The translations under genes and the position numbers were made by a program. A stretch of 16,707 nt of DNA from Candidatus Hodarchaeum mangrovi (GTDB lineage Archaea > Asgardarchaeota > Heimdallarchaeia > Hodarchaeales > Hodarchaeaceae), in NCBI GenBank assembly GCA_016839515.1, contig JAEOUE010000181.1, forward strand, positions 1 to 16,707, written 5' to 3'. Under the pieces are notes generated by a model. That model had not been told where the DNA came from, ran no database searches, and saw only the letters and a list, made by a program, of their open reading frames with translations. Positions 174 to 16,600 of this stretch are shown one piece after another. How positions within the stretch are numbered: the first letter of the stretch is position 1; every line of letters starts with the position of its first letter.

Positions 174-212
174 AACTCCGTCCTGACAGGTTTAGATGTG
201 AAAAATATATAC
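174..212 (+). repeat. Dispersed ~50-bp boundary repeat, copy R1 (degenerate)
   Basis: AACTCCGTcctgacaGGTTTAGATgtgAAAAaTATATAC matches the consensus at both ends; the second GTATATAC half-site is lost. Confidence 0.75.
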
Positions 213-285
213 CATGGCTCTATTCAGCAGATTATTGACATAATCATTCAAGAAAACTGATGTAATAACCTCTGGGGTAATAAGA

Positions 286-1347
286 ATGAGTAGCATTAAC
301 TATAAATTAAAAACCTTCAACACTGTAAAATTGGATCAAATCGTTGACAAAATAATCGGTAAAAAAAACATATTCGGAGCTGTTTTTTATGTTTCATCAG
401 GTGATGGAAACCAATCCTGGTGTGGTGCTTCTGGAAATCTAAGTCCAGAGAGCAAATATTATGTAGCAAGTATAAACAAACTCTTCATTGCTTCAATAAT
501 ACTCAAACTAATTGCTGAAGGAAAGCTTTCCTTAGACGACAAATTATCAAATTATTTACCAGAGAAAATTATGAAAGGCCTTCATGTTATAAATGGAAAA
601 GAGTATTCTAATGACATAACAATACAGCATATGTTGTCTATGACCTCTGGACTACCATGTTATATAGCTGATAAAGATACTAAAGGCAGATCGGTTATGA
701 AGGAATTGGAATCGGGCATTGACCAACCTTGGCCAACTGAAAAGGTCATAGAAAGAGTTAAAACAATGAAACCACATTTTCCACCTGGCCAGGGGAAAAA
801 AGCAAAATATATTGACACAAATCATCAAATCTTAAACCTTGTAATCGAAAAAATTACAGGGAATTCGATCAATATTGTCTTGAATAATCTGTTTAATGAA
901 TTGAAAATGTTTGATACATATGTTGCGGAAGATCTATCAGATACAAGTTACGTATTTCCTTATTATAAGGATATACAAATAAACATTAGTCAATTCATTA
1001 CCTCAACAAAAAATGATATCATTTCCACAGCTAAAGATCAAATGATTTTTATTAAAGCGTTTTTTTCGGGATATTTCTATCCAAAAGATAAACTAAATGA
1101 GCTCGAGAATTGGAAATCAGTCTTTTTTCCTTTCCAATACGGTATTGGTATTCAAAAGTTTCATATTCCAAAATTTCTTACTTTATTTCGGTCATATCCA
1201 GAAATGTTGGGTCATAGTGGTTCTACTGGAACATTTACCTTTTATATACCCAAGCTTGATGTGTATATTACTGGTTGTACCAATCAACAAGCAAATCCTA
1301 ATGTTGCCTTCCAAACTATTCTTAAAATTATTCAGACTATAAAATAA
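286..1347 (+). CDS. Serine hydrolase, beta-lactamase/AmpC-like (peptidase S12) family
   Basis: 353 aa; SxxK motif (ASINK), LSLDD, LLxHxSG-like MLSMTSGL, PG..Y motif (YIDTN) and GHSG motif; no signal peptide. Confidence 0.9.
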   Translation: MSSINYKLKTFNTVKLDQIVDKIIGKKNIFGAVFYVSSGDGNQSWCGASGNLSPESKYYVASINKLFIASIILKLIAEGKLSLDDKLSNYLPEKIMKGLHVINGKEYSNDITIQHMLSMTSGLPCYIADKDTKGRSVMKELESGIDQPWPTEKVIERVKTMKPHFPPGQGKKAKYIDTNHQILNLVIEKITGNSINIVLNNLFNELKMFDTYVAEDLSDTSYVFPYYKDIQINISQFITSTKNDIISTAKDQMIFIKAFFSGYFYPKDKLNELENWKSVFFPFQYGIGIQKFHIPKFLTLFRSYPEMLGHSGSTGTFTFYIPKLDVYITGCTNQQANPNVAFQTILKIIQTIK

Positions 1348-1348
1348 G

Positions 1349-1440
1349 TTTCCTCTCCTCCCGTCTAGGGAGACTTCTTCATTCCATCTCCTTTTTTTTC
1401 TTTTCATTTTTTCAGTCCATCTTCCTTTAAAATTTAATTT
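1349..1440 (+). terminator. Pyrimidine/oligo-T-rich putative terminator
   Basis: Short hairpin CTCCC-GTCTA-GGGAG (1358-1372) followed by several T runs directly after the stop codon. Confidence 0.5.
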
Positions 1441-1448
1441 TCAGAATT

Positions 1449-1504
1449 AACTCCACAGATAGGAAAAAGCTGGTCAAAGGCTGGTTTAAATTACAAAAGT
1501 ATAT
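1449..1504 (+). repeat. Boundary repeat copy R2, with internal partial duplication
   Basis: AACTCCA[cagataggaaaaagctgg]TCAAAGGCTGGTTTAAATTACAAAAGTATAT; truncated within the first half-site. Confidence 0.85.
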
Positions 1505-1580
1505 GATAATCCACAACCTATCTCTATAGTAACAATTTGCTGAAATATGCTCCTATTTCCATAACCAAATAAAATAAACC

Positions 1581-1754
1581 TTACAATTCAGTATATCCAA
1601 TTTTAAGATTAATATATGTATCAAGGACACCTTCTTCTAATGATAACAATTCTTTGATAGTAAGTGATTCAGCATCGGAAGAGCTTAACATATATGGGGT
1701 AGAAAATTCATATTTAGCGTAAAAACGTCCTATTTTAAAATTATTAATTCTCAT
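1581..1754 (-). pseudogene. N-terminal fragment of a class I/II PLP-dependent aminotransferase
   Basis: Manual translation MRINNFKIGRFYAKYEFSTPYMLSSSDAESLTIKELLSLEEGVLDTYINLKIGYTEL* (57 aa) resembles the F-x-LER-YF-x-KYEF...LSSSD-x-ES...LGYTE N-terminus of this family; the rest of the gene is absent. Confidence 0.75.
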
Positions 1755-1889
1755 AATTCAAGTTCGTTTCTCTTTTAGCATTTTTAGTCTACTTAATTAT
1801 TACATATAATTTGTTAAGGTCGGTTCTGAAGGAATGCGATAGAAATATAATAACCCAAACTGTCTTGAGTAAGAAAAGGAGAAAATGAT

Positions 1890-2984
1890 ATGAATCTATT
1901 TCTACTAATTGTGTTATATGTAGCAGGATGTTTACTCTTTCTTTTTCTAGGATTACTACTATTAAGAATATATTTGAGATATTCGACCAAAATAAAAACA
2001 TCAAACGGTATAAGTTCATTGGAAGAGATTACGCTTGGTGATTTAAAACAATGGATATTTATCCGAGGTACAAATCAAAATAATCCAGTATTAGTATTTC
2101 TACATGGTGGGCCTGGAGTACCTTTACTGGGAATGGCAAGTTCCCGTAAATATGATAAAGAACTAATAAAATACTTCACTGTAGTTCATTGGGATCAACG
2201 AGGGGCTGGAAAATCGTTTAACAAGGATATTCCAGCTCATTCAATGACCTATAACCGCTTTGTTGAGGATTGCAATGAATTAATTGAATATTTATGTAAA
2301 AGGTTTGACACTTCAAAAGTGTTTATTGTTGCACATTCAGGAGGAACCGTAATCGGATTAAAAACTGTTCATAGATATCCAGAAAAAATTCATGCCTATG
2401 TAGGGGTGTCACAATCTATAGACGGTTATGACGAACAAAAAGTCGCCTATGATTTCTTACTTGAACAAGCTGAAAAAACTGGCGATCTAAAAAGATATAC
2501 TGCAATCAAAGCCATAGGCCCTCCCCCTTATAACTCGCCAAAAAAATATTTAAAACAAGCTGGGAATATTGGACATTATGGAGGATTTTTGGCTGATTCT
2601 AGCATTAAACAATATCTTAAAATGGGAATTTTAATGATCTACTTCATCATTTCTCCTGAATATTCATTGTTAGAAGGTTTTCGAACCTTCCTAAACAAAG
2701 GATTTAACTTTACTATGAACGCTATATGGGAGGAATATAAAAATATCAATCTTACAAAAGAAATTCAATCTATTAAAGTTCCTGTATACTTTTTTGAAGG
2801 CAAATGTGATATGACAACGCCCGTTGTTCTTGTTGAGAAATTTTATGACAACTTAAATGCTGAAAAGGGAAAAAATCTCATAATTTTTGAAAATTCAGGT
2901 CATCTCCCAATGATAGAAGAAAAAGGAAAATACGAGGAATTATTGATAAATGTTGTTTTGAAAAAAAGTCAGAATAATGAATGA
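1890..2984 (+). CDS. Membrane-anchored alpha/beta hydrolase (proline iminopeptidase-like)
   Basis: 364 aa; N-terminal TM helix, HGGPG, WDQRGAGKS, nucleophile elbow AHSGG, GKCD acid and SGH catalytic His; GGAG upstream. Confidence 0.9.
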   Translation: MNLFLLIVLYVAGCLLFLFLGLLLLRIYLRYSTKIKTSNGISSLEEITLGDLKQWIFIRGTNQNNPVLVFLHGGPGVPLLGMASSRKYDKELIKYFTVVHWDQRGAGKSFNKDIPAHSMTYNRFVEDCNELIEYLCKRFDTSKVFIVAHSGGTVIGLKTVHRYPEKIHAYVGVSQSIDGYDEQKVAYDFLLEQAEKTGDLKRYTAIKAIGPPPYNSPKKYLKQAGNIGHYGGFLADSSIKQYLKMGILMIYFIISPEYSLLEGFRTFLNKGFNFTMNAIWEEYKNINLTKEIQSIKVPVYFFEGKCDMTTPVVLVEKFYDNLNAEKGKNLIIFENSGHLPMIEEKGKYEELLINVVLKKSQNNE

Positions 2985-3192
2985 AGAAAATAAAAGGGAA
3001 CCTTATATAACAGAAAATGCTACTCTTACTTTCAGCAATTGGAGATGTTTCCTCTGGAAGATTTGATAGTAAAATCTTTCTATGATACTAGGGATTTACT
3101 CAAAACAATGTTCCTTTCTATCGCTTAAACCCACTTGGTTGTCATTATAGTCAATGTTTCACTACATACAACTGAGATCTCACCATTATCTG

Positions 3193-3741
3193 TCAAAAAG
3201 CTGTATGGCATACTTCCATAAAAGCACAGGTTGGACAAACACGAAAGCTTACATAAAGAAGCATTCCTACAAGTGAAACTATAAAACCAATTAATCCAAT
3301 CAAAGCAAATACAGAAAAACCTAAAAAGAACGAAATAGGTATGAAAATAATAGGGCCCAGCCATAGTATATACGAATGGAAAAACCATTTTTTCGCACAC
3401 GTCACATGTTTATCCAAGTAAGTTTCTTTCCATTCATCTACAGATAATAGAATCGTTGTTGCCTTTCCCGTCTTTTCATCAATTGTAGCTTCTCTTACTT
3501 TGTAATAACAATAATGGCAATGTTTAATTGGCCATACGAATAAATTAAACCAGACAGAATATAATAAATACACTACAGCAACCCATATACTAAAAAATGC
3601 AATCCCCACAGTGCTAAAAGTTATTAACCCTACCCTAAAAACCAATACAAGTACTGAATTATTGTATGGACACTTAGGATAGAATAGATGCCGTACCCCT
3701 AATTGATGTATTTCAGTCATATTTTTATTCTTCCTATTCAA
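3193..3741 (-). CDS. Cys-rich hypothetical membrane protein (about 4 TM helices)
   Basis: 182 aa; two hydrophobic hairpins, each followed by a CxxC motif (CHYC, CPTC); start may be the internal Met of MTEIH. Confidence 0.7.
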   Translation of the reverse strand: MNRKNKNMTEIHQLGVRHLFYPKCPYNNSVLVLVFRVGLITFSTVGIAFFSIWVAVVYLLYSVWFNLFVWPIKHCHYCYYKVREATIDEKTGKATTILLSVDEWKETYLDKHVTCAKKWFFHSYILWLGPIIFIPISFFLGFSVFALIGLIGFIVSLVGMLLYVSFRVCPTCAFMEVCHTAF

Positions 3742-3836
3742 CTTGATGCAGGATTTTAATCTTTTATAATCAAAAAATTTGTTATTTCTTTTTTAATTGA
3801 GAAACTGTTAAGACACAAAATAACCATGCAATACAC

Positions 3837-4880
3837 CTAGCAGAGACATTCTTTAATTTCTTTAGAAATCATACTAGAGGGAGAAATATCCTGTTTCTTT
3901 TCAATGTCGGAGTTGTTACCTTTACTTATCCAAACGTTCGATAGTAATATCAGGAAGACCCCACTATATATCCATACTGAATAGAATTGTTGTAAAAAAA
4001 TGAATTCTAAAATGAATGGGATAATAACCTGAAATAATTGCAAAAAGGAAGTGCTAATTGAACCTAGCCTAGCTATGGCCCAGTTCCAGAAACCTAAGGC
4101 AATAAAAGTTGGGAAAATCCCTAAAAATAGGATATAAGGCACCAATCCTAGATGAATCTGAAAAGATAATTCACCACTAATCATTGAAAGAAGAAATAGA
4201 GCAAGAAAAGTATGAAAGAGACTAGCATATGTAAAACTCATGAGATCAAATTCTTTCCTCTCTGATTTTTCTACATTCAGAAATTTTCCAGTTATAACGG
4301 CGTAAAAACCCCACATGAAAGCAGCAAATATCAAGATAATGATCCCTATTATAGAAGAATTGGAAAAATTTGCCCAATCCCCATTAAAACTTATTAAAAA
4401 AATACCTAATAGTCCAACGATTCCAATTACTGTTATTTTCCAGCTTAATGGAGTTCCTTCAATCTTCCAAGCAAGAAACGGGACAAGGAATATATAAAAG
4501 GATGCAAGTAATGAAGCTAGGCCTGGTGTTGTAATATCTTGACCAATGGTTGCCGTTAGATACCCCAAAGCATCTAACCATCCTAATATTATGACAGTTT
4601 TTCCTGATAACATTGAAAATCCTTTTCGTCCCTTTATTAGAAGTATGATGAAGGAAAATACCAATACTCCTACTCCAAATCTAAGAGTTGTTGTTTGAAG
4701 GGGTGTGAGAGAAACTAGTGCTACTTCAATAACTAATGGGGTGATTCCCCAAATAATATTTGATAGAAAAAGTACAAACTGTGCACTACGATGAGATGGC
4801 AATGCATTGAAATCGAAGATTCTCAGGGATGATTTAATTAGAAGTGAAATATTATCTAGTTTTTGCATGCATGGATACAA
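3837..4880 (-). CDS. DMT/EamA family transporter
   Basis: About 10 TM helices with two EamA repeats (IWG..P...LRF; A.FMWG.Y); true start probably the ATG at 4868. Confidence 0.9.
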   Translation of the reverse strand: MYPCMQKLDNISLLIKSSLRIFDFNALPSHRSAQFVLFLSNIIWGITPLVIEVALVSLTPLQTTTLRFGVGVLVFSFIILLIKGRKGFSMLSGKTVIILGWLDALGYLTATIGQDITTPGLASLLASFYIFLVPFLAWKIEGTPLSWKITVIGIVGLLGIFLISFNGDWANFSNSSIIGIIILIFAAFMWGFYAVITGKFLNVEKSERKEFDLMSFTYASLFHTFLALFLLSMISGELSFQIHLGLVPYILFLGIFPTFIALGFWNWAIARLGSISTSFLQLFQVIIPFILEFIFLQQFYSVWIYSGVFLILLSNVWISKGNNSDIEKKQDISPSSMISKEIKECLC

Positions 4881-4909
4881 TGCTTCGAGATATAATAAAT
4901 TATAACCTC

Positions 4910-4946
4910 CATATGACGGTATAGCGAATTACTTAACTGTCATATG
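4910..4946. promoter_or_regulatory. Inverted repeat, candidate operator between the divergent EamA and HTH_10 genes
   Basis: CATATGACGGT-N15-ACTGTCATATG, 10 of 11 positions complementary. Confidence 0.45.
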
Positions 4947-5663
4947 TCGGAAAAGTTATATAGTGAAGGCAATTTTTTTTCCTTGGAGAGTTCAATGTTA
5001 TACCAATTCATACTTGAAATTCAACACGATTGCAAATTTTCAGTCTTTTCACAAAATCATCCAAAAGTTGAAATCCAACGTTGGTGTAATACTGAAAATG
5101 ATATTATTGAATTAAAAGGAGCTAAGAACGATCTTGAAGTAGCAATCACAGATGTAAAAGAGTCCCTAGGAAATGTTATTACTATTTTTCCTGATCAATG
5201 TCATATTCAACTCGTTGTGGACCTTTGTTATTATGATGTACTTCGTTTAGATAAAATTTTCAACAGATATAATTGTCTTGAACTTCCACCAGTGAAATAT
5301 TTTGCAGGACGAGAAATTAGCAATCTTATTGTTACACCAGAAGATGCAGGATTAATCCTTGAAGATATTCGTAAGGAAGATCCTAGTGCCAAAGTGAATG
5401 TATTAAAACTTGCGCCTCTGAAGAGTGCTGCTGAACCGTATCCATTTTATCTTCCTTTAGATCGCTTGAAAAATGATTTAACCTCAAAACAACAAGAAGC
5501 ACTTAAGCTTGCCTATACTAAGGGATATTACGAGTTACCAAGAAGTGTTTTCTTAGAAAACCTGGCTAAAGAGCTTAACATCCATCGTAGAACTTATGAA
5601 GAACATCTTAGAAGGGCGGAAAAGAAAATAATGAGCTACTTAGTTCCCTCCCTTATGCTTTAA
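4944..5663 (+). CDS. Archaeal HTH_10 (bacterio-opsin activator-type HTH) transcriptional regulator
   Basis: C-terminal LTSKQQEALKLAYTKGYYELPR...LAKELNI...EEHLRRAEKKI is the HTH_10 signature; N-terminal HDC motif; likely start is the ATG at 4995 after GGAG. Confidence 0.9.
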   Translation: MSEKLYSEGNFFSLESSMLYQFILEIQHDCKFSVFSQNHPKVEIQRWCNTENDIIELKGAKNDLEVAITDVKESLGNVITIFPDQCHIQLVVDLCYYDVLRLDKIFNRYNCLELPPVKYFAGREISNLIVTPEDAGLILEDIRKEDPSAKVNVLKLAPLKSAAEPYPFYLPLDRLKNDLTSKQQEALKLAYTKGYYELPRSVFLENLAKELNIHRRTYEEHLRRAEKKIMSYLVPSLML

Positions 5664-5881
5664 CCGTAAATGTTGGTCATAATACCCGTAATTTTATTGA
5701 CATCATTTGGAAAAATCTCTAATTCATTCATATTGTGTAAAAGAACATCTAAGTTTCCCCCAGTATCGAAGAGTATCTTTTCATTGTCAATTGAAATCCA
5801 AAACGATTGAACATGAGCTCCTCGAAGATTGCTATTATCAGGAGATTCATTTGAATAAATATTTATTATCGTTGCTTGCAT
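5660..5881 (-). pseudogene. Truncated MBL-fold metallo-hydrolase
   Basis: MQATIINIYSN...HVQSFWI...ILFDTGG...LLHNM is an MBL N-terminus; where HGHYDH is expected, a shifted frame reads TAC GGG TAT TAT GAC CAA (YGYYDQ), then the gene ends. Confidence 0.75.
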
Positions 5882-5981
5882 ATGAAAACTCATCTCAAGC
5901 TAGATGTCACTTCGTTATAACATAATAGAGCTTTCAATTGATTAAAAAATTTTGGACATTAGGATAGAAGTCATATAATAT

Positions 5982-6043
5982 TTTTTTAAAAGATTAGGTT
6001 CTGTTTTTTAAAAGATTGGGTTCTGAATCTGACTAGGTTTAGA
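5982..6043 (+). repeat. 22-bp tandem duplication resembling the left half of the boundary repeat (relic R3)
   Basis: TTTTTTAAAAGATTAGGTTCTG / TTTTTTAAAAGATTGGGTTCTG (21 of 22 identical) followed by GGTTTAGA at 6036; compare TAAAAGATTGGTTTAGA in R11. Confidence 0.6.
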
Positions 6044-6101
6044 AAGCCATACAGCTTAGAGATCTTCCCAGTTTAAATAATGATAAAGCAATATTCTGAT
6101 T

Positions 6102-7823
6102 TTATTGGTCTTTTTTCCGTATTAATAAAACTATAGCTAAGAAAATTCCAAAGAAGGAGAAAGTAGAACTTTTCGATTCCAAGGAACCACTGAAAAATAG
6201 GATCTTTGAAAGATTCGCTTGATGTGGTAAGAAATTATTCTTTGATACTGTGATGTTTACCTGTTCAAATTGACCAATATCAATCGGAAGAGTAATCTTT
6301 CCTTCTGAATTAGTAATACCTCTCCAATAATAAGTAGAATTAGTTAAGGTAATCCATGCGTTATCTACTGGTTCATTATTTGAAACCACAATTAATTGGT
6401 TGGTATTATTTATTTTAAAACTCTCTAACTTTGAAGGAATCTTAGTCCATATTGGAACTTCAGGATCCCCCATTAAATTATACTGAGTGAGAGTCCTTAA
6501 ATCTTGATCCTCATTTCTCAGATTTGACTTACAATCTTCTGCGTACGCATTTTTTGCTAATGCTAAAGCTTTTCCAGGATGATTAGAATTTTCAGTGAAA
6601 ATTCTTAGCCAAAACCGATATAATAAACCTTGGGTAACCCAACACTTGTAATTATCTGTATAAATCTCATTATCATAATAAGCTGACTTTGAGCTTCCTA
6701 TACAGCCAATTCCACAATTTCTAACAATATACTCAGTTAAAGAGGTTCCTCCATTAAAAGTTCCTGTTGCACAGGCAGCTAAAAAATATAATCCATTTTT
6801 ACCATAAGTTTCAAATTCAGTGGACGTTGAAATAAACATTTCCGATTCTAAACTATCCACTCCCCAATCAAATAAATTATCACCATCTACATCTTCAGTG
6901 AAAATACTTCTATACATTCCCGTTGATGATCCATGAGCATCTATCTGTACTACCCCAGCACCTGAATTAATAAAATTAATTAAATTATTTTCAGAGATCG
7001 GATAATCATAGTCATAATCAGTAGTTTTTACTCCTTCTGTTTCCCCAAGCATCACTGAATTCCAATGAGAAGGTATAACATTAGTTTTGAGCCAATTATG
7101 ATTCCTATTAGTATCAAATTCTTTCCAATCTTCACTATCTAATTGATTATTACCGTTAGAGTCAGAATTAAAATTCGCAAAAGTACCACCAAACAAAGCT
7201 GTATTCATCCATGAACCAATTGGAGGATTTTTTTCATAATCAATTATTCTTGCAACTAAATTAATCATTTGATCTTCATTATCAGCAGGTAATCTTCCAA
7301 CATAAACCTCTGGTTCCCATTCTGTACCAGTTACAATACTGTCAATTTCTGAATCACTACTCAACCAATCATTATCTAAATTCCCATAATAATTATCACA
7401 ACTGACAGTTAAACCATCTACTAACAAACTTTTAGTAGGAATAATATATTCCCCACCAGCTAAAACAACCCAATTTGTTTCATTATTTAGGTAATAATCT
7501 TGTATGCATCTTCTAATCTTTTCTGCTAAAGAATTCCCCTCATATTTAAGAGAGATAATCTCAGTTGTTTCTATATGAACCATTAATCCGCGTTGAGATT
7601 TCCAATTGACTAAAGGCTGTAATTCATCTAAAAACTGATCTGTAGAGATTATCAGGTAGTCAATTATATTTGGAGTAATTAACGATTCATCATTTTGAAA
7701 AACTTCATTTCCTTGGGTAATTATAATATTCCCAAACAACGTCGATTGATAAACAAAGAAAATAAGTAACAAAGAACACAAAAATTTTGATTCCCCTTTA
7801 TCTATTCCCATATTATTTCCCAT
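6102..7823 (-). CDS. Peptidase C25 (gingipain-like) cysteine protease, secreted and C-terminally anchored
   Basis: YLIIS...L.PL..WK..RG, VVLAGG, DNYY..LD, PEVYVGRLP, catalytic His (AHGS) and Cys (AACATG), YNLMGDP; N-terminal hydrophobic signal and C-terminal TM plus RKK. Confidence 0.9.
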   Translation of the reverse strand: MGNNMGIDKGESKFLCSLLLIFFVYQSTLFGNIIITQGNEVFQNDESLITPNIIDYLIISTDQFLDELQPLVNWKSQRGLMVHIETTEIISLKYEGNSLAEKIRRCIQDYYLNNETNWVVLAGGEYIIPTKSLLVDGLTVSCDNYYGNLDNDWLSSDSEIDSIVTGTEWEPEVYVGRLPADNEDQMINLVARIIDYEKNPPIGSWMNTALFGGTFANFNSDSNGNNQLDSEDWKEFDTNRNHNWLKTNVIPSHWNSVMLGETEGVKTTDYDYDYPISENNLINFINSGAGVVQIDAHGSSTGMYRSIFTEDVDGDNLFDWGVDSLESEMFISTSTEFETYGKNGLYFLAACATGTFNGGTSLTEYIVRNCGIGCIGSSKSAYYDNEIYTDNYKCWVTQGLLYRFWLRIFTENSNHPGKALALAKNAYAEDCKSNLRNEDQDLRTLTQYNLMGDPEVPIWTKIPSKLESFKINNTNQLIVVSNNEPVDNAWITLTNSTYYWRGITNSEGKITLPIDIGQFEQVNITVSKNNFLPHQANLSKILFFSGSLESKSSTFSFFGIFLAIVLLIRKKDQ

Positions 7824-8143
7824 ATGATTAGAAAAACTTCATATATAAATGAATACTAAGTAATTTCTATTTAGAAAGTAAAATCTGATGACTCTTAGAT
7901 GTTATTACACTAGTATTTCTGATTCTAATGAATGAGTAGTGCTTGTGAACCCAGCCCTCTAAAATGAAAAAGTAAATGTTAAACTATTCTCAAACGCCAA
8001 CGATCCACGTAGTGTGTTACATCAGGAGTTTGTGAACCACTGAATCCTCTGTTCAGAATAGAGAGGGGACTCATATCCTCCTCTAAATTTTTTCAATAGA
8101 CTATACTAGAACTTCCAACAAATAGGATGATATTATTTTTAGT

Positions 8144-8180
8144 AATACCGTAAAAGGCTTGTATGGATCGAAAAAGTATA
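8144..8180 (+). repeat. Boundary repeat copy R4
   Basis: AATACCGTAAAAGGCTTGTATGGATCGAAAAAGTATA; truncated in the first half-site. Confidence 0.85.
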
Positions 8181-8209
8181 GAAGTAGAGTAGGGGCAATT
8201 CGATCCAAA

Positions 8210-9259: not shown

Positions 9260-9325
9260 TTTTCTTATTCCTAAAAGCTGTCTTTTTGAGTCTTAAGTAA
9301 TTATTAAGAAATACACCCTTTTCTC

Positions 9326-9375
9326 AACTTCGCAAAAAGCTGGTTTAGATTACAAAGCATATACTCGGGCATATA
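9326..9375 (+). repeat. Boundary repeat copy R5
   Basis: AACTTCGCAAAAAGCTGGTTTAGATTACAAAGCATATACTCGGGCATATA. Confidence 0.9.
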
Positions 9376-9584
9376 ATATGTTTTAAAAATGCTACAAATG
9401 ACTAAAGATTGATCTAATTTCATTATCCAATCATATCAGTTAATACGATTCAGATTAGGGTGTAAATCCAGGTTTTTAACCAGTATTATTCTTATTTTTA
9501 TTATTATCTGCTTAATCCTTGAAAGTTGTCAGAATCATATATTACTTAAGGAATAGATCCATAAGCAGAATTGAGGGTGAAAAA

Positions 9585-10001
9585 ATGACAGTATTCAATG
9601 GTGGACGCATTATACTTGGAATATTCTATTTAATTTCTGCAGGATTTAATTTATTTCACACAATAAATAATACTGAATATCTATGGATCGTTTGTTTAGA
9701 AAACGTTCGGTTTTCCCTTCAAAAAGAATTTCTAGAGAGATTAATTATCCCAAATGAGACGATAGTTATACTCTTAATTGTAGCATTAGAAATAGTGATG
9801 GGGGTTCTAATTCTAACTCAAGGGACTTATGTGAAAATAGGATTAATCCTCGGAATACTCTGGGTACTGTTTGTAGCACAATTTTTACCTATGAACGATA
9901 TAGTTGGACATATAATATTGGGAGGTATCCAAGCACTCCTACTCCTAGAAACCTATGATGAAACCGGTTTCGAGATAATCAAAGGTGTAATCAAAAAGTA
10001 A
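9585..10001 (+). CDS. Small integral membrane protein (DoxX-like topology)
   Basis: About 4 hydrophobic segments, RIILGIFY and ALEIVMGVLIL motifs; ATG at 9585 follows GAGGGTGA and is preferred over the TTG at 9519. Confidence 0.7.
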   Translation: MTVFNGGRIILGIFYLISAGFNLFHTINNTEYLWIVCLENVRFSLQKEFLERLIIPNETIVILLIVALEIVMGVLILTQGTYVKIGLILGILWVLFVAQFLPMNDIVGHIILGGIQALLLLETYDETGFEIIKGVIKK

Positions 10002-10053
10002 TTTAATTTGATCATGCAAAAAACCCAGATTTCGTTTTTGTCCCCTAAGAACG

Positions 10054-10086
10054 AATTCCATAAAAGGCTGGATTAACACCAAAAAT
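10054..10086 (+). repeat. Boundary repeat copy R6 (left part only)
   Basis: AATTCCATAAAAGGCTGGATTAACACCAAAAAT; the palindromic part is missing. Confidence 0.7.
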
Positions 10087-10367
10087 CCTAATTAAAAATG
10101 AGATAATTCTCACTTTGTAATGCATTGATCACATTAGAAGATTTTCCCACCAATAGATAAATCTATTGATAGAATCACTAGCACCAATATCCAGTGGTTG
10201 GTTCAAATAGGTAAAATTTATGATTAACTCCTAGTGAAGAATATTAACATTACAAATAATTTCTATTTTGAAACTACTCTGGTGGTTTATTAAACTAGTT
10301 TTAATCCGATAGAACAGATTTAACTTTTGATTAGCAAGCAAGAATTCTAGAAAAAACTGATTAAAAA

Positions 10368-11573
10368 GTGATTATTGAGGATTATATTTTGAGAAATAAA
10401 CAAAAAACCTTGGAAAAGGTATTATGTCTTTTAATTGTAGTTAGTATTACATTCTTTACTTTTAGAGTTGAGTTGAGTAATGCAAACACTGGAAACGTCC
10501 AAACTACTTCTCCTCGTGACAGAACCATGCATGCAATGGTCTTTGATTCTATGAATCAAAAATGTATTTTGTTTGGTGGTAGTTGGGATACGTTAACTTC
10601 GGGGTTCCAGCATTTAGACGATACTTGGGCTTATGATTATAACAACAATATCTGGATGGAATTAGCTCCTGCAAATCATCCTTCTGCGAGAGATTCACAT
10701 GGTATGGTGTATGATTCTAAAACCAATCAAACAATACTCTTCGGTGGGGGACCTACAGAAACATGGGTCTATAAGTTTTCAAGTAATTCCTGGACCCAAA
10801 AATCAACAGGAACTTCGCCTCCTTCATTATATTATCATGCAATGGTCTATGATCCAGTTAACCAGAAAGTAATTCTCTTTGGTGGGTTGAATAACCAAAT
10901 AAACGATGAATTTTGGGAATATGACCCTAGTACGAATATATGGACGGAACTTACTCCATCCATAAAACCTGAAGCCCGATATGGTCATACTATGGTTTAT
11001 GATTCAACTAATCAGAAAATCATTCTGTTTGGAGGAAATAGCGCTGAAGGATACAGAGAGGATACATGGGTGTATGATTATACAAACAATACATGGATCG
11101 AGTTAAATCCATCAACCCATCCTAGCCCCCGATATATGCATACTATGATCTATGACAGTAATAGTCAAAAAGGAATCCTCTTTGGGGGTTTTGGTGGAAG
11201 TCTTTTAAGTGAAACTTGGATTTATGATTATGTAACCAATAGTTGGGAGATTTTAAGTACGAGTGGATCCCCATCAGAAAGAATCTGTGCTACATTTGTA
11301 TATGACTCCATAAACGATAAAGGTATATTATTTGGGGGTTATGTGGATAATGGAGATTCTGCAATTACCTTCGGAGACTTATGGGTTTATCATTCAAATA
11401 ATAACTCATGGACACTCAGAAATGTGTTTACACCCTCGAGTACCTCAACAGGGGGTAATTCTACAATCCATACAGAAAAAACTGTCTTTATAACTTTGAA
11501 CGAAGTATTACTTATCTTTGGAGGTATTATAGGCATCTTCAGAGCTTATAGACACAGAAAAAGAATATTATAG
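10368..11573 (+). CDS. Kelch-repeat beta-propeller cell-surface protein
   Basis: Six repeats of P.PR..H.MVYD...K.ILFGG...TW.YD...N.W; N-terminal signal/TM, Ser/Thr linker, C-terminal TM and basic tail; start may be the TTG at 10389 after GAGGA. Confidence 0.9.
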   Translation: MIIEDYILRNKQKTLEKVLCLLIVVSITFFTFRVELSNANTGNVQTTSPRDRTMHAMVFDSMNQKCILFGGSWDTLTSGFQHLDDTWAYDYNNNIWMELAPANHPSARDSHGMVYDSKTNQTILFGGGPTETWVYKFSSNSWTQKSTGTSPPSLYYHAMVYDPVNQKVILFGGLNNQINDEFWEYDPSTNIWTELTPSIKPEARYGHTMVYDSTNQKIILFGGNSAEGYREDTWVYDYTNNTWIELNPSTHPSPRYMHTMIYDSNSQKGILFGGFGGSLLSETWIYDYVTNSWEILSTSGSPSERICATFVYDSINDKGILFGGYVDNGDSAITFGDLWVYHSNNNSWTLRNVFTPSSTSTGGNSTIHTEKTVFITLNEVLLIFGGIIGIFRAYRHRKRIL

Positions 11574-11691
11574 ACTGATAGATACGTCATCTATGGCTAA
11601 TTTAGATTGAAAATGTATATCCCAAGCTACATGCCGTGAAACCTCCCCTCTAAGGGCAGAAAGAAAACTTGGTGAATTATTTACATTTATG

Positions 11692-11743
11692 AACTCTGTA
11701 AAAGGATGGTTTAGATTACAAAAGTATATACTAGGGTATATAT
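11692..11743 (+). repeat. Boundary repeat copy R7 (near consensus)
   Basis: AACTCTGTAAAAGGATGGTTTAGATTACAAAAGTATATACTAGGGTATATAT. Confidence 0.95.
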
Positions 11744-11763
11744 GAACTGTTTCTGTGAATTAA

Positions 11764-12297
11764 ATGGCTCAACAAACAACGCTTCATATGCTAATATGGC
11801 AGTTAGAAAGTTGGTTTCAAGAATTAGTGCGAACTTTATCCGAAATTTCGGAGGAAGAGGCGAAATGGAAACCCACAACACATTCTAAAACAGTAGACGT
11901 ACTTAACCAGTGGTATGGGAAAAGAAAAGACTGGATTTCGGAACACCTTCTTGACCCCATCTCTACAATCGAATATAAAGTAGTGCATTTAGCACAATGG
12001 AAACAAAAATTTTATGAATATGCGTTCAGGGAGGGCAGCCGGAAATGGATAGACCTCGAATGTCCAGAATGGCCACGGTGCATCGATTATTTGAGAAAAA
12101 CACAAAAAAATGTAGTTGAGGTCCTTCAAAATCTGACAGATGAACAATTGGATGACAGGGTTCCTACACGTTGGGAGGAGGACTGGTCAATGAAAAAACT
12201 AATCTCTACCTTGATCTATCACGATGCATATCATTTGGGTCAAATTAATACCATAAGAAATCTCTATAATATTGCGAACAAAAGAAAAGCTGGTTAA
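11764..12297 (+). CDS. DinB/YfiT-like four-helix metalloprotein
   Basis: SEEEAKWKP, TI...VVHLA and HDAYHLGQI (His triad). Confidence 0.85.
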   Translation: MAQQTTLHMLIWQLESWFQELVRTLSEISEEEAKWKPTTHSKTVDVLNQWYGKRKDWISEHLLDPISTIEYKVVHLAQWKQKFYEYAFREGSRKWIDLECPEWPRCIDYLRKTQKNVVEVLQNLTDEQLDDRVPTRWEEDWSMKKLISTLIYHDAYHLGQINTIRNLYNIANKRKAG

Positions 12298-12312
12298 AAT
12301 TGAAAAAATATG
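12285..12312 (+). repeat. Boundary repeat copy R8 (degenerate, overlaps the DinB stop codon)
   Basis: AAAAGCTGGTTAAAATTGAAAAAATATG. Confidence 0.7.
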
Positions 12313-12348
12313 TCCTTTTATATTTCTGTACAGCTTAATAATCGTCTT

Positions 12349-12397
12349 AACTTCGTAAAAGGCTGGTTTAGATCCCAAAAGTATACCAGGTACATAT
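12349..12397 (+). repeat. Boundary repeat copy R9
   Basis: AACTTCGTAAAAGGCTGGTTTAGATCCCAAAAGTATACCAGGTACATAT. Confidence 0.9.
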
Positions 12398-12434
12398 CTT
12401 TAACAGGTAGAATCTGTGATAGGCTTCTAGAAAG

Positions 12435-13364
12435 TTATTTGTATAAATCTCCACTTAAATATTTGAGACCAGAATCTACTAGCAATGTGACCACAGTTGC
12501 ATTAAGATTTGATTGTTTCGCTATTTTGATAGCTGCAGCGACATTTGCTCCTGACGAAATTCCCGCAAAAAGACCTTCTTCTCTTACTAATCGTCTAGCC
12601 ATTTCTTTTGCTTCATTGGTTGAAATTGATATTATATCATCAACAATGCTTGGATTCCATAAAGGTGGAGTAAATCCTATTCCAATTCCTCCAATACCAT
12701 GAGAACCACTCCTGCCCTCTGATAATACAGGGGATTCTGCAGGTTCTACAGCGTAGATTTTTATGTTTGGTTTATAATTCTTCAAAATACTAGCAGTTCC
12801 TTGCAATGAAGCTGCTGATCCAACGACATGAACAAATGCATCAATATTACCATCTGTTTGTAACCAAATTTCTTCTCCTAATTGGTGATATCCAGCAATA
12901 TGGTCTTCATTATTGAGTTGGTCAGTCCAATAAGTATTAGGTTCCTTACTAAATTCTCTCGCTGTTTCTATCATTTTTTCAACGAGAGTTTTGGTAATAC
13001 CCCTTCCTTCACTAGAAATAATAGTCATATCTGCACCAAAAGCCTTCATATGATTTATTTTGTCTTGACTAAAGGCATCAGAGGATACAATACGAAGATG
13101 ATAACCTTTAACAGCACAAATAAGTGCTAAAGAAGTACCAGTGCTTCCTCCTGAATACTCAACAACAGTGCCACCTCTAACTAATCGTCCATCTTTTTCT
13201 GCTCTTGAAATCATAGCTTGTGCCATACGATCTTTCATACTCCCAGTAGGATTTTCCCATTCCAACTTTACTAATACGCTTGCACAATCAGGAGGTACAA
13301 CGTTATTCAACTTCACTATAGATGTATTTCCTATAGCTTTGAGGACATTTTCAGCAATTTTCAT
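12435..13364 (-). CDS. Cysteine synthase family PLP enzyme (CysK/CBS-like, variant motifs)
   Basis: IGNT, KLEWENPTGSMKDR (PLP Lys), AVEPAES, EEGLFAGISSGAN, DSGLKYLS; GGAGG upstream. Confidence 0.9.
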   Translation of the reverse strand: MKIAENVLKAIGNTSIVKLNNVVPPDCASVLVKLEWENPTGSMKDRMAQAMISRAEKDGRLVRGGTVVEYSGGSTGTSLALICAVKGYHLRIVSSDAFSQDKINHMKAFGADMTIISSEGRGITKTLVEKMIETAREFSKEPNTYWTDQLNNEDHIAGYHQLGEEIWLQTDGNIDAFVHVVGSAASLQGTASILKNYKPNIKIYAVEPAESPVLSEGRSGSHGIGGIGIGFTPPLWNPSIVDDIISISTNEAKEMARRLVREEGLFAGISSGANVAAAIKIAKQSNLNATVVTLLVDSGLKYLSGDLYK

Positions 13365-13517
13365 TTGGAGGCATCCTTTAATAAGATTAATTAGGTATAC
13401 TACAGGATATAATTAATCTTTCGAATCCATTTTTAATAATCAGAATTTTTCATGGAAATTTCAGATTTGATTCATCAATAAAATTGGTGTTCAAGATTTC
13501 TAATGTGCCACTAATTA

Positions 13518-13576
13518 TTCGTAAAAAAACACCTAAGGCTGGGTTAGATAAGAAAAGTATATACTATAGTATATAC
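13518..13576 (+). repeat. Boundary repeat copy R10, with perfect 20-bp palindrome
   Basis: TTCGTAAAAAAACACCTAAGGCTGGGTTAGATAAGAAAA followed by GTATATACTATAGTATATAC (13557-13576). Confidence 0.95.
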
Positions 13577-13680
13577 AAAACATTAGTTATTTTCAAACTA
13601 GAAAGATAGAAAAAAAAGAGAAGAGCAAAATTAACTACAAGTACTAAATACAGTATTTGGAGCTAATTATCCTACCTAAA

Positions 13681-15105
13681 TTATGGCTTGATATTTCGGT
13701 TTAAACGGAAGAAATTCAATGGATCATACTTTCTCTTTAGCAGCGAAAGACGCTTCAATTTAGCACTTCCATAAGTGGTTTGAACTCGATCATCTCCTTC
13801 GTCCTGACTCTGGAAGTTAATATAAGCACCACCTATTGAAAACGGCTGTAACGCTTTCCAAAATTCACGTGTCCATTGGATATGCTTTTCTGATTCTTTT
13901 GGATCTCTCCAAGTGGTGTTTAAGATGAGCGAATAAGCAGCTTTTCGGTGACTGTATGCCGTCGCATCCTCGTCAACATGACTTATCGCACCACCGAGAT
14001 GAAATCCAGCAATAACGGATAGAGGTGATGTTATTTTTGAAGCATGCTCAACAAGTGTATCAATAATTTCGTTGCTAAGGGCAGGAAGAAATTCAGATTT
14101 CACATAATAATTCCAACCTGGTTGAGCTGATACATCTAACATGGATTGGAGGGCTCGAAATGGTTTAGGACCAATTCCATCGACCAAAGGCGTTCCGTAT
14201 TGCCTTAAAGGCGCGATTAATGCTTCCCCTTTTTCAATTACCCCTGTATATAGAACAATGACCCCAACAACAGGTTTACCATGGACATCTTTTGGCAAAA
14301 ATGGGGCAGCTGGGGCAAGACGGAGTATGGGTACAACAGTAAGTTCATCTGGGACATCAGCGATGAAATCACGGTAAAACCGTAGAAACTCACGAGCATC
14401 CTCCATGGGATGAAGAAGCATTCCTCCGAGAACTATCGGACCAATTTTTTGTAGTCGATATTCGAATGAGGTAACAACACCAAAGTTACCTCCACCTCCA
14501 CGTAAACCCCAAAAGAGATCCTCATTTTCTGTTTCACTAGCTGTTAGGAATTCGCCTTCAGCTGTCACTATATCAACTGAAATGAGGTTGTCAATGGAGA
14601 GTCCATATTTACGTGAAATATATCCAAATCCTCCACCAAGAGTTAATCCTGCAATACCAGTTGTTGTTACTATTCCAGATGGAACAGATAAGCCGAACAT
14701 CTGGGTCTCCCGATCAAGCTCTCCTAGAGTAACACCAGCTTGGGCACGTACAGTTTTAGATTTTAGATCTAGATGAATGCCCTTCATTTTAGATAGGTCA
14801 ATCACCATTCCATCATCACACAACGCATTACCCGCAACATTGTGGCCACCACCTCGAATCGACACTAAGATATTATGTTCGCGTGCGAACTTTATCGCAT
14901 CGATAACATCTGCAGGACCTGTACAACGTACGATGAGTGCAGGACATTTGTCAATCATACCATTCCAAATTTTACGGGCATTATCATACTCATTATCAGT
15001 GGGTAAGAGCACATCTCCTTGAATTAAGGATTTTAATTTATCTAAAGCATCTTCAGATAATAAAAATTCTTCGTACGAAGAAGTTATTGCCTTGATCTTG
15101 GACAT
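13681..15105 (-). CDS. FAD-binding oxidoreductase, berberine-bridge/6-hydroxy-D-nicotine oxidase-like
   Basis: RGGGHN covalent-FAD His motif, GIAGLTLGGG, DLFWGLRGGGGNFGVVT, C-terminal BBE motif YINF...KYDP.N.F. Confidence 0.95.
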   Translation of the reverse strand: MSKIKAITSSYEEFLLSEDALDKLKSLIQGDVLLPTDNEYDNARKIWNGMIDKCPALIVRCTGPADVIDAIKFAREHNILVSIRGGGHNVAGNALCDDGMVIDLSKMKGIHLDLKSKTVRAQAGVTLGELDRETQMFGLSVPSGIVTTTGIAGLTLGGGFGYISRKYGLSIDNLISVDIVTAEGEFLTASETENEDLFWGLRGGGGNFGVVTSFEYRLQKIGPIVLGGMLLHPMEDAREFLRFYRDFIADVPDELTVVPILRLAPAAPFLPKDVHGKPVVGVIVLYTGVIEKGEALIAPLRQYGTPLVDGIGPKPFRALQSMLDVSAQPGWNYYVKSEFLPALSNEIIDTLVEHASKITSPLSVIAGFHLGGAISHVDEDATAYSHRKAAYSLILNTTWRDPKESEKHIQWTREFWKALQPFSIGGAYINFQSQDEGDDRVQTTYGSAKLKRLSLLKRKYDPLNFFRLNRNIKP

Positions 15106-15192
15106 ATTAGGTTCTCCACCTATAAATATTCGATATTTTCATTTTGATCACATTTTCAATAAAAAAATAAAAAAAAGATTTAGATCATTTAT

Positions 15193-15537
15193 TTAAGCAG
15201 AAACTGAAGTCAGACTAAGTTCATTTCCAAAACAATCTTGGAATACTGCTACGTATCCAAAGTTCTCGTAATTAAATTTCTCTCTGATTACTTTTCCTTC
15301 TTTTAAAAGCACTTTCTCTAAAGTTTCATCGATATTTGCTACTTGGAACCCAATATTAAGGCCTTTTGGTCTAATTTTCTTTGTTTGAAAAATACTTATT
15401 CCAATAGAACCATTGATTGTGGCATAACCTTGGTTTGGCATTCTTGTTCTATCAAATGTCCAACCAAAAACAGTTTCATAAAATTCTATTCCTTTTTCTA
15501 AATCTAGAACAGGAATTTCAATTCCTACATCTTCCAT
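15193..15537 (-). CDS. VOC/glyoxalase-bleomycin resistance family protein
   Basis: EIPV.DLEK...FYE.VFGW, F.V.NIDE, A.FQD.FGN. Confidence 0.9.
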   Translation of the reverse strand: MEDVGIEIPVLDLEKGIEFYETVFGWTFDRTRMPNQGYATINGSIGISIFQTKKIRPKGLNIGFQVANIDETLEKVLLKEGKVIREKFNYENFGYVAVFQDCFGNELSLTSVSA

Positions 15538-15687
15538 ATTTATTACTTCCTTAACTATTGTTAATTTTTTTGGATAGTTTAACGAAAATAATCAAATTAT
15601 AAAATACTATAGTTCAGAAAATCGTAAAATTATTTCTTAGGATTTAGGAATTTAACTAATCTTTGATAGATACTAATTTATCTTGCA

Positions 15688-15736
15688 TCGTAAAAGATTG
15701 GTTTAGATTGGAAAAGTATATACAAGAGTATATACT
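15688..15736 (+). repeat. Boundary repeat copy R11
   Basis: TCGTAAAAGATTGGTTTAGATTGGAAAAGTATATACAAGAGTATATACT. Confidence 0.95.
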
Positions 15737-15950
15737 GCAAAATACTCCCTGTACTTCCAACAATTCATTAAAATATTGACTCTCTTCCACGAAACATCCT
15801 TTTAATAAATCCAAGTAGAGAGGAATTTGACTTAATTTCAGCTATATCTTTATAAGAGAGCTCATTTTGTTGATTAACATGGTTTTCATTGATTTAGAAT
15901 TTGATTTTATAGCCAAGTTTTACAATTGTATAATTTTTACCTTTATTATT
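15737..15950 (-). pseudogene. Possible decayed AIM24-like gene fragment
   Basis: Minus strand reads ...LSYKDIAEIKSNSSLLGFIKRMFRGRESIF, then after frameshifts FNE and VGSTGSIL; reminiscent of the AIM24 motif GG-LKR...GESFF-N; contains stops. Confidence 0.3.
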
Positions 15951-16053
15951 GATTTTTCCTGATTTTAAATGTTTGAATTTTATTATTGAGAGCAAAAGCA
16001 GAGATTTCTGGTTCTTTAGCGTGAAAACTAAACATCAAATCTAAGTGAATATT

Positions 16054-16212
16054 ATGAGTTATGGAAATTCATACAATCGTGGACCACGAGAAATGCACAA
16101 AGTAACCTGTGCTGATTGTGGAGTAGAAACTGAAGTTCCCTTCAAACCTGATGGAACTAGACCAGTCTACTGCCAGGAATGTTATAGAAAACGTAGACCA
16201 AGAAGGTACTAG
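16054..16212 (+). CDS. CxxC-x17-CxxC zinc-finger small protein (absent from the ORF track)
   Basis: MSYGNSYNRGPREMHKVTCADCGVETEVPFKPDGTRPVYCQECYRKRRPRRY* (52 aa); exact CxxC-x17-CxxC spacing with VPFKP and RPVYC. Confidence 0.93.
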   Translation: MSYGNSYNRGPREMHKVTCADCGVETEVPFKPDGTRPVYCQECYRKRRPRRY

Positions 16213-16243
16213 GTATCAAAAGATTATCTGAGGATATTCTTCA

Positions 16244-16257
16244 TTTTTTTTTTTTTT
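16244..16257 (+). terminator. Oligo-T terminator
   Basis: 14 consecutive T about 30 nt after the zinc-finger gene stop. Confidence 0.6.
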
Positions 16258-16324
16258 CTATTCAAAAATAATTAACCTCATACTGTTTAATATACAAATC
16301 GTTGCATTGCTCAGGATAAAACCC

Positions 16325-16376
16325 AACTCCATCAAAGGCTGGTATGGATTGGAAAAATATATACTAAGGTATATAC
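16325..16376 (+). repeat. Boundary repeat copy R12
   Basis: AACTCCATCAAAGGCTGGTATGGATTGGAAAAATATATACTAAGGTATATAC. Confidence 0.95.
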
Positions 16377-16600
16377 ACGATCATAGAGAAGTTCTATTCA
16401 TTTTTGAATTAATAGTATGAAATTAAGACTCTATCACTAAATTCACATTTTCTTACGTCTCTTCAACCAATGCACACCAATAAATCCCGCGCAAACTGGA
16501 TAATGTCTGACTAATGAGCATCCATCCTAATCCATCCTTTTATATAATACGAACATCATCAATAAATCTTTCTGCTAAATAATAAGATGAAATATAAGAT

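Follow-up and report, generated by a model that had tools for sequence, protein, structure and literature searches.

Integron cassettes are mostly promoterless, co-oriented, and read from a common promoter, and the IntI gene normally lies beside attI at the start of the array; the attC site itself is an imperfect palindrome that, as single-stranded DNA (ssDNA), forms a long stem with extrahelical bases (R''-L''...L'-R'). The pdif sites of Acinetobacter, XerC/XerD sites of 28 bp, look like chromosomal dif and alternate in orientation. Repeats in clustered regularly interspaced short palindromic repeat (CRISPR) loci measure about 24 to 48 bp, and the ends of miniature inverted-repeat transposable elements (MITEs) and transposons are marked by terminal inverted repeats and a target-site duplication, with copies dispersed on both strands. 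Here, we analyze a contig of the Asgard archaeon Candidatus Hodarchaeum mangrovi (the window: the whole stretch of 16,707 nucleotides [nt] that was analyzed, ∼32% G+C), which is the entire contig C115 of a genome bin, G000, of 4,006,905 bp in 348 contigs and 91% completeness. A 52-bp repeat, which we call the tag, divides the window into gene modules. On balance, we lean toward the view that the window is a stretch of a chromosomal mobile-module array and that the tag is a protein-recognized recombination site at which modules are exchanged.

In their logic, tag arrays appear closest to integron cassette arrays and to the dif modules of Acinetobacter. Like tag arrays, integron arrays hold accessory genes that are unrelated to one another, with a single co-oriented site of the recombination type bounding each, and a highly diverse pool, rich in toxin-antitoxin and small-enzyme genes, whose cassettes are shared across species; in Asgard integrons, attC folds like its bacterial counterparts and cassettes mostly have one orientation (both points from the consulted part of PMC9668308). 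However, integrons fold attC as single strands, whereas the tag is a conserved 52-bp sequence with no attC fold; they have IntI, which we did not find here (its absence is unproven, because G000 is 91% complete), and they have attI and a Pc promoter, neither of which was seen at tag arrays. Tag modules, unlike integron cassettes, occur in either orientation, have their own upstream regions, and reach the size of whole operons. The breakpoints at tags, again unlike the integron case, spread over several nucleotide positions.

Acinetobacter dif modules resemble the tag arrays in being discrete accessory modules with short recombinase-type sites that shuffle between replicons and strains; there, a host housekeeping recombinase encoded outside the array acts in trans (PMC6449649, PMC13141974, PMC12907356, each in its consulted part). 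In contrast to pdif, tags are 52 bp long, all parallel, and chromosomal, and their palindrome is no single-copy dif. Integrative mobile elements exploiting Xer (IMEX) at dif, and archaeal tandem integrations, likewise have co-oriented direct repeats between inserts (PMC8371274, in part); tag modules differ from such inserts in being single genes or operons that lack genes for integrase, replication, and virions, and tag arrays showed neither a tRNA nor a dif as anchor. CRISPR arrays share with tag arrays regular, one-stranded direct repeats, unique DNA between them, and a lineage-specific repeat, but CRISPR spacers are short and regular, whereas the intervals between tags measure 0.05 to 12.5 kb and encode genes, and no Rfam family matched in the window. 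A limited literature search found no published description of these repeats; a paper on Heimdallarchaeum mobile elements (PMC8813620), in its consulted part, covers aloposons, integrated viruses, and transposases, not these repeats.

Anatomy and families of the tag

A preliminary description of this DNA had reported a co-oriented repeat at gene boundaries, and that repeat is real: the 17-mer AAAGGCTGGTTTAGATT, with ≤3 mismatches, matches the window eight times, always on the + strand, compared to 0.12 matches expected, and none of 200 shuffles reached eight. By repeat finding, the direct, co-oriented repeats form one family in the window, and a profile built from 75 copies, which also yielded the nhmmer E values of Table 1, recognizes 10 clear and two weak or partial copies, all on the + strand. 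All are intergenic except the unit at 12283, which extends into the final codons of the DinB gene. Most of the starts given in the preliminary description stand; the copy placed at 1449 really begins at ∼1467, one at 11583 had been missed, and those at 10054 and 12285 are partial or weak. A supposed relic near 5982 found no support from either of two profiles: positions 5982-6025 hold instead a 21/22-bp tandem duplication (two copies of TTTTTTAAAAGATTRGGTTCTG), which is polymorphic, because contigs of X2, X6, and X7 (metagenomes) lack 21 letters at 5989.

The consensus of the 52-bp tag is AACTCCGTMAAA-(GGCTGG or CGCACA)-TTTAGAT-N3-AAAAGTATATAC-N4-GTATATAC, where AACTCCGTMAAA is the left end, GGCTGG is the core, and the N4 before GTATATAC stands for weakly conserved bases. 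Nineteen columns are conserved at 90% or more. The conserved blocks carry 1.2 to 1.7 bits per position, compared to 0.2 to 0.7 bits in the variable spacers of fixed length (positions 32-34 and 47-49); conservation falls off sharply at both ends (positions 7 and 58), and no flanking duplication was seen. The 8-bp palindrome GTATATAC is present twice per tag, 4 bp apart, and the most conserved part of the tag, together with the core that varies between families, lies 15 to 27 bp to its left. When six tag strands were folded as ssDNA, each formed an AT stem of 7 to 9 bp (−3.6 to −5.9 kcal/mol) and remained otherwise unpaired, in agreement with the earlier view that this is a non-attC site.

Our sister-genome sample comprises 80 further stretches with 166 tags at E < 1e-3. 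Among these 166 tags, the core is GGCTGG in 140 and CGCACA in 10, the rest of the tag being conserved in both families. The two families coexist within the same genomes, in separate arrays, and never share a locus (the core is uniformly GGCTGG in 25 loci and uniformly CGCACA in 4, with 0 mixed loci). CGCACA-core tags form arrays on G018:C4, C211, and C200 and on G004:C26 (genome:contig) and occur as single copies on G002:C51, G020:C142, G013:C128, and G011:C39. Read from the sequences, the fixed spacers, the palindrome, and the two exclusive 6-bp cores suggest a protein-recognized recombination site. The core could behave like a specificity or overlap core; alternatively, the two families could stem from two ancient arrays that have evolved apart.

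The left end of the tag has two subtypes, A (AACTCCGTMAAA) and B (..GTCGTCCATGG), and in the four abutting pairs that were read (54 to 109 bases apart; L020, L023, L024, and window 11583/11692), B stands before A. The window tag at 10054-10092 and a tag of L030 (locus position ∼5139), which come from different genomes, both keep the left half, continue with GGCTGGATTAACAC, and then diverge; a metagenome contig has a similar tag middle (...TTTAACAC...). Tags built in this way may be a third site variant or a hybrid junction.

Distribution and polarity of the tag

A profile scan for clustering and strand bias, as proposed in the preliminary description, found both. The copies on C115 make up most of the matches in the 4.0-Mb genome; outside this contig, clear copies lie one each on C319, C321, and C196, near the ends of these short contigs, and weaker ones lie on C148, C167, and C32. 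Thus, the tag is not a genome-wide motif. At E ≤ 0.01, the tag model matched all 22 genomes of the genus, 1 to 27 times each; at E ≤ 1e-4, it matched 19 of 21 sister genomes, whereas 17 other genera of the class, sampled with 61 genomes, gave no match. As for polarity, all copies are on one strand in 30 of the 31 loci that have ≥2 copies (120 copies in these 31 loci).

Content and orientation of modules

Module statistics were drawn from 21 oriented contigs with 69 inter-tag intervals, which range from 54 bases to 12.5 kb and contain no open reading frame (ORF) in 7 cases, one in 25, and more in 37. The cargo is unrelated and, as first described, in either orientation: 22 modules are all +, 25 are all −, and 15 are mixed. 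The first gene after a tag is on the + strand 31 times and on the − strand 31 times, and the tag keeps no fixed distance upstream of genes; start codons lie 60 to 470 bases from the neighboring tag, on either side, and stop codons are often ∼15 to 65 bases away. Gene pairs at 81 tags (30 −,−; 19 convergent +,−; 19 +,+; 13 divergent −,+) occur at frequencies similar to those at 306 tag-free control junctions (96, 55, 101, and 54 in the same classes), which argues that the tag is neither promoter nor terminator of its neighbors. The modules look self-sufficient, each with its own upstream space. The idea of the tag as a general promoter was abandoned: in the regions preceding 1111 long ORFs of G000, a rough k-mer scan detected neither a sharp TATA signal nor any enrichment of the tag words (GTATAT and ATATAC).

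The 197 ORFs carried in arrays fall into 162 clusters, 142 of them singletons. Among 150 representatives, the commonest families are PIN proteins, which are toxins (n = 8), ABC ATPases (n = 4), and methyltransferases (n = 4); other cargo includes transporters and DinB proteins. A complete CbiM-CbiN-like-CbiQ-CbiO-NikR operon forms one module in four genomes. Neither the Pfam assignments of the window genes nor the commonest cargo families include integrase, replication, or structural/virion genes. On one of the other tag-carrying contigs of the bin, a gene for a Ras/Rab-like small GTPase (G000:C319:4632-5219) adjoins the tag at the contig end; such a gene is expected in an Asgard genome.

Reshuffling and exchange between species

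For every pair of tags, we compared 150 bases on each side. Forty-five pairs share a flank: 19 share the left only, 25 share the right only, and 1 shares both. Gene order across the repeats is thus not syntenic in relatives. None of the conditions that the preliminary description had named as refuting it (even spread in both orientations, a fixed distance upstream of genes, or synteny across the repeats) was borne out. Smaller samples of flank-sharing pairs gave 11/11/0 and 13/11/0 (left only/right only/both). No such pair crosses core families: the typed pairs number 33 (1,1), 4 (2,2), and 0 (1,2). The cleanest case for locating the exchange is the DinB module of the window. It is 96% identical to G011:C47, and this identity begins at about position 14 of the left tag and stops in the right tag, between ∼24 and ∼38, so that both ends of the mobile block fall within its flanking tags. 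On G019:C179, the C25-peptidase module stands beside the zinc-finger module, whereas the same two are 8 kb apart in the window.

Metagenome evidence consists of assembler contigs rather than reads and shows presence only. In this sense, ≥54% of the words of window 6701-16700 are present in 20 metagenome runs from seven studies. The main contigs (7 to 10x) keep the module order of the window, and a 3x contig, in one of four runs compared, joins the left part of a tag, the zinc-finger module plus tag (15717-16377), 35 diverged letters, and the CysK module from 12434; the order of modules thus varies in natural populations. Joints whose sides were very short (3303>15161, 830>998, and 2076>2175), which are likely due to chance or other organisms, were left out, as were window parts uncovered in X7 and X15.

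As a DNA query against the genus, the window yielded 103 non-self matches, 44 of them at ≥80% identity (maximum, 96%). These are scattered: in the closed genome G009 they lie at 0.33, 3.07, 3.39, 3.68, 4.40, 4.42, and 4.48 Mb, in G015 at 0.12, 0.86, and 0.95 Mb, and in G019 on 9 or more contigs. A core control of equal size around xerA (C187:1-16707) gave 136 non-self matches, none at ≥80% (maximum, 79%; mostly 64 to 73%), and is collinear in one 13- to 30-kb stretch in most genomes (for example, G009 2,222,100-2,240,546). Modules are therefore less syntenic and much less diverged than the core, as recent horizontal exchange predicts, and so they appear, from these comparisons, to move between species.

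Mechanism and alternative explanations

In the mechanism that we favor, modules would be inserted, lost, reordered, and exchanged among species of the genus at the tag, by recombination between parallel tags such as the integration or excision of a circle that carries one tag. Recombination between parallel tags would leave the tags co-oriented automatically. The tag would be read by a protein acting in trans, and two kinds of enzyme could be at work: a site-specific recombinase, or a nuclease specific for the tag that sets off gene conversion. Both the recombination inside the tag and its reading by a protein are what we infer.

Several observations weigh against this mechanism. Change-point mapping across the 166 tags did not place the homology breakpoints at one position: in three pairs, homology of the right flank crosses the whole tag and reaches position 11-16, in two, that of the left flank extends as far as ∼50, others switch near 30-35 and some at 48-58, and many switch at or beyond the tag edges, where breaks are partly soft, the method being ungapped and disturbed by small indels. 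A single switch in the N4 spacer, suggested by a few early pairs, did not hold with 166 tags. Since the switch point varies, a classical recombinase with one fixed exchange point lacks support; the spread fits homologous recombination or gene conversion better than classical fixed strand exchange. Possibly, homologous recombination or gene conversion takes place within the tag and is started by a tag-specific break; a tag-specific nuclease with gene conversion would account for the spread of crossovers.

Further points against it come from the relatives. The 94 to 96% identities sit on short contigs of metagenome-assembled genomes (MAGs) that are possibly mis-binned, although matches of 81 to 88% on closed chromosomes or long contigs (G009, G015, G006, G020:C163, and G004:C78), which pose no binning problem, still exceed the core. 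Homologs of the CysK, FAD/BBE, C25, EamA/HTH, and zinc-finger genes are tag-free in the closed genomes G009 and G015 or on long contigs; on G004:C78, the zinc-finger gene directly neighbors the VOC gene without a tag, in sequence that lacks the tag core; and the neighbors of the FAD gene differ in most relatives even where tags are absent nearby. Tags are thus not the sole route of accessory gene movement in the genus, and arrays may be built from ordinary chromosomal sites and return genes there. The three single-contig (closed) genomes carry just 6, 1, and 1 matches, and the closed-genome copies that were read (L034, L035, and L038, from two genomes) have a degenerate palindrome or are incomplete. 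In L058 (G003:C97, ∼17127-17171), the only tag that is opposite to its array mates lies 28 bases from the contig end, where two arrays could meet head to head, unless the assembly is at fault.

The search for the enzyme also speaks against the favored mechanism: the recombinase or transposase sought at the cluster ends did not appear on or beside the arrays examined (PF00589 in five genomes, the flanks of two array ends, and in-array proteins). At two complete array ends, the flanking genes are those for PanE, a methyltransferase, PNPOx, and ArsA; array contigs of four relatives have no PF00589 match, and no recombinase is among the 25 commonest families of 150 in-array proteins. MAGs often lose mobile genes; in G000, at 91% completeness, we found no serine recombinase, Y1-HUH transposase, IS110, rve, or DDE_Tnp_1 enzyme, and a TnpB-like match was subthreshold only. 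PF04986 (Y2 transposase) had no match, yet control genomes were equally silent. A 70-amino-acid ORF in L033 that resembles an integrase N terminus matches no family. The single PF00589 match of G000 lies off the array contig, in a housekeeping neighborhood at C187:5159-6049, and is a XerA equivalog (278 bits on NF040815, cut-off 220), which scores 157 on the integron-integrase model TIGR02249 (cut-off 265).

That this XerA is the tag enzyme is possible but unsupported. In such a system, host XerA would act on the palindrome, read as 11-6-11, and excise or insert modules in the manner of IMEX or the dif modules of Acinetobacter. No tyrosine recombinase other than XerA was found in G000, the other enzyme classes named above were not found there, and Xer resolution naturally acts on direct repeats. 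Archaeal dif is an 11-6-11 site with conserved flanks (PMC8371274 and PMC2958812, in part), and the palindrome can be read in this way (AAAAGTATATA-CNNNNG-TATATACnnnn), but conservation is missing from the four outer positions of the right arm. Moreover, the symmetric 28-mer (≤3 mismatches) occurs in only 10 of 22 genomes, the listed places being mostly on tag-carrying contigs, and is absent from closed G015; it is thus not the genus's single-copy dif. With the most conserved part of the tag and its varying core well to the left of the palindrome, and with breakpoints that run from ∼11 to beyond 58 instead of falling at spacer edges, we regard a Xer-type system as distinctly unlikely. A more serious competitor, if still an improbable one, is that the tag is an operator or insulator for a regulator of accessory genes and that the shuffling is passive homologous recombination, including uptake from relatives. 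The spread of breakpoints across the repeat, the failure of searches of G000 to find a dedicated recombinase, and a fixed-spacing palindrome typical of dimeric regulators all speak for it. Homologous recombination would keep tags parallel just as well, and four core mismatches would hinder it. Yet tags are unlinked to gene starts or ends, they are restricted to arrays instead of accompanying accessory genes generally, and a regulatory site does not explain strict one-strandedness over tens of kilobases beside genes in both orientations.

The architecture of the arrays and their integron-like cargo (PIN toxins, DinB, and VOC proteins) recall a classical integron or an integrase-less attC cluster (CALIN) with divergent attC, and integrons, mostly CALINs, are reported to be enriched in Asgard archaea (PMC9668308, in part). 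We can give this explanation hardly any credence, as the tag lacks a long imperfect attC-type hairpin and has only the 7- to 9-bp stem, the sole tyrosine recombinase falls far below the integron-integrase cut-off, whole operons with their own upstream regions are included among modules of both orientations, and the site, with 19 columns conserved at ≥90%, is unlike attC. Very improbable as well, if slightly less so, is an origin as MITE ends or as the att sites that complete mobile elements leave when they integrate in tandem. The tag is indeed short, intergenic, and genus-specific, and tandem integration yields co-oriented att repeats (PMC8371274, in part); however, the unit has no terminal inverted repeats or target duplications, its strict clustering on a single strand is unlike a MITE, the modules lack integrase, replication, and structural genes, and no tRNA gene was found in the window. 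A protein-recognized recombination site in a mobile-module array therefore remains the reading that we prefer. The proposal of the preliminary description, site-specific integration of captured DNA at a growing, integron-like array, is partly supported: it was right in spirit, with mobile modules that a polar, non-attC site bounds and an enzyme located elsewhere, but the mechanism is unproven, given the spread of breakpoints, the lack of a recombinase, and the tag-free homologs in two closed genomes.

Map of the window

Table 1. Tags, modules, and genes of the window
Feature	Position	Strand	Evidence and remarks
Tag R1	174..225	+	nhmmer E 1.9e-6, match 171-222; core deviant, GACAGG instead of GGCTGG
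Module: beta-lactamase-family serine hydrolase gene (286-1347)	226..1466	+	PF00144, E 9.7e-32
Tag R2	1467..1518	+	nhmmer E 3.1e-9, match 1471-1507; left end and second palindrome arm degenerate
Composite six-gene block (probable), no internal tag	1519..8143	mixed	Pfam
Block gene: alpha/beta hydrolase	1890-2984	+	Pfam
Block gene: membrane protein	3193-3741	−	
Block gene: EamA	3837-4880	−	Pfam
Block gene: HTH_10 regulator	4944-5663	+	Pfam
Block gene: small ORF	5660-5893	−	
Block gene: C25 peptidase	6102-7823	−	Pfam
Tag R3	8144..8195	+	nhmmer E 3.1e-5, match 8142-8180; right half degenerate
Module: gene without Pfam family (8210-9259)	8196..9325	−	94% match to G019:C268, starting at 8209
Tag R4	9326..9377	+	nhmmer E 3e-12, match 9322-9377
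Module: membrane protein gene (9519-10001)	9378..10053	+	
Partial tag R5	10054..10092	+	nhmmer E 0.027-0.029, match 10052-10075; left half only, then ...GGCTGGATTAACAC
Module: Kelch beta-propeller gene (10368-11573)	10093..11582	+	PF24981, E 2.8e-72
Tag R6a	11583..11634	+	nhmmer E 5.2e-6, match 11582-11637; left-end subtype B, ...GTCATCTATGG
Tag R6	11692..11743	+	nhmmer E 7.8e-15, match 11689-11745; near-consensus
Module: DinB-family gene (11764-12297)	11744..12282	+	PF12867
Degenerate tag R7	12283..12325	+	17-mer with 3 mismatches; E 2.6, match 12286-12311; overlaps DinB gene end
Tag R8	12349..12400	+	nhmmer E 1.7e-11, match 12346-12399; palindrome arms degenerate
Module: pyridoxal phosphate (PLP)-dependent CysK-like gene (12435-13364)	12401..13524	−	PF00291, E 8.9e-68
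Tag R9	13525..13576	+	nhmmer E 3e-11, match 13532-13577; left end degenerate, perfect palindrome
Module: FAD/BBE oxidase gene (13681-15105) and VOC/glyoxalase gene (15193-15537)	13577..15683	−	Pfam
Tag R10	15684..15735	+	nhmmer E 2e-12, match 15685-15738; perfect palindrome
Module: treble-clef zinc-finger gene (16045-16212)	15736..16324	+	PF23477
Tag R11	16325..16376	+	nhmmer E 8.1e-15, match 16322-16378

A further tag lies directly upstream of window position 1, as shown by the metagenome joint 15736>1 (X2 and X6); the contig therefore begins just past one tag and ends 330 bases past another. The FAD/BBE and VOC module stands out by its G+C content (0.40 to 0.42, compared to about 0.32 elsewhere in the window), and the nearest relatives of the FAD/BBE module outside the genus are bacterial or haloarchaeal (46 to 57%). 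The gene at 8210-9259, previously labeled GalT, belongs to no Pfam family.

What had been described as a five- to six-gene block does hold six genes without an internal tag, but it is probably composite, because its parts are apart or rearranged in relatives and, in X2, a tag follows the HTH_10 gene (in a 2.65x contig, the end of this gene, at 5634, runs into the start of a tag). On G001:C71, G016:C62, and G021:C151, the alpha/beta hydrolase gene likewise neighbors the EamA-HTH_10 pair (window 1876-5677); there, the pair is inverted, lies ∼32 bases from the hydrolase gene, and is not accompanied by the membrane-protein gene. This rearrangement involves no parallel tags. Over window 1672-3342, which covers the alpha/beta hydrolase gene, summed contig depth is 20 to 300x, compared to ∼3 to 9x elsewhere, in all four metagenomes, and up to 26 different metagenome contigs with many loose ends overlap this stretch; near-identical copies of it seem to exist in other, more abundant organisms or contexts. 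In the zinc-finger module, ∼220 nt upstream of the 55-amino-acid zinc-finger gene (15825-16044) are conserved like the gene itself in a four-genome alignment; this upstream stretch contains a TTTATAA box, and downstream of the gene lies a poly-T run. The conserved stretch may be a structured leader or a small RNA.

Implications

Heimdall/Hod Asgard archaea are the closest known prokaryotic relatives of eukaryotes. How these archaea take up and reshuffle genes is an open question, for which tag arrays give a concrete locus that can be scanned. Tentatively, and with less conviction than we hold for a recombination site as such, we raise the possibility that the tag belongs to a previously undescribed Asgard platform for gene capture and exchange, in which a 52-bp polar site would be served by an enzyme (recombinase or nuclease), the core would set the exchange partners, and whole promoter-bearing genes or operons would move between species. 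The arrays themselves store, reorder, and pass accessory genes and operons between species whose core genomes differ by ∼30% in DNA. The 52-bp tag could be used to fish the mobile gene pool of the genus from metagenomes, as well as to search for the protein that reads the tag. Should the enzyme prove to be new, site-directed recombination would gain a class whose 6-bp specificity core can be swapped.

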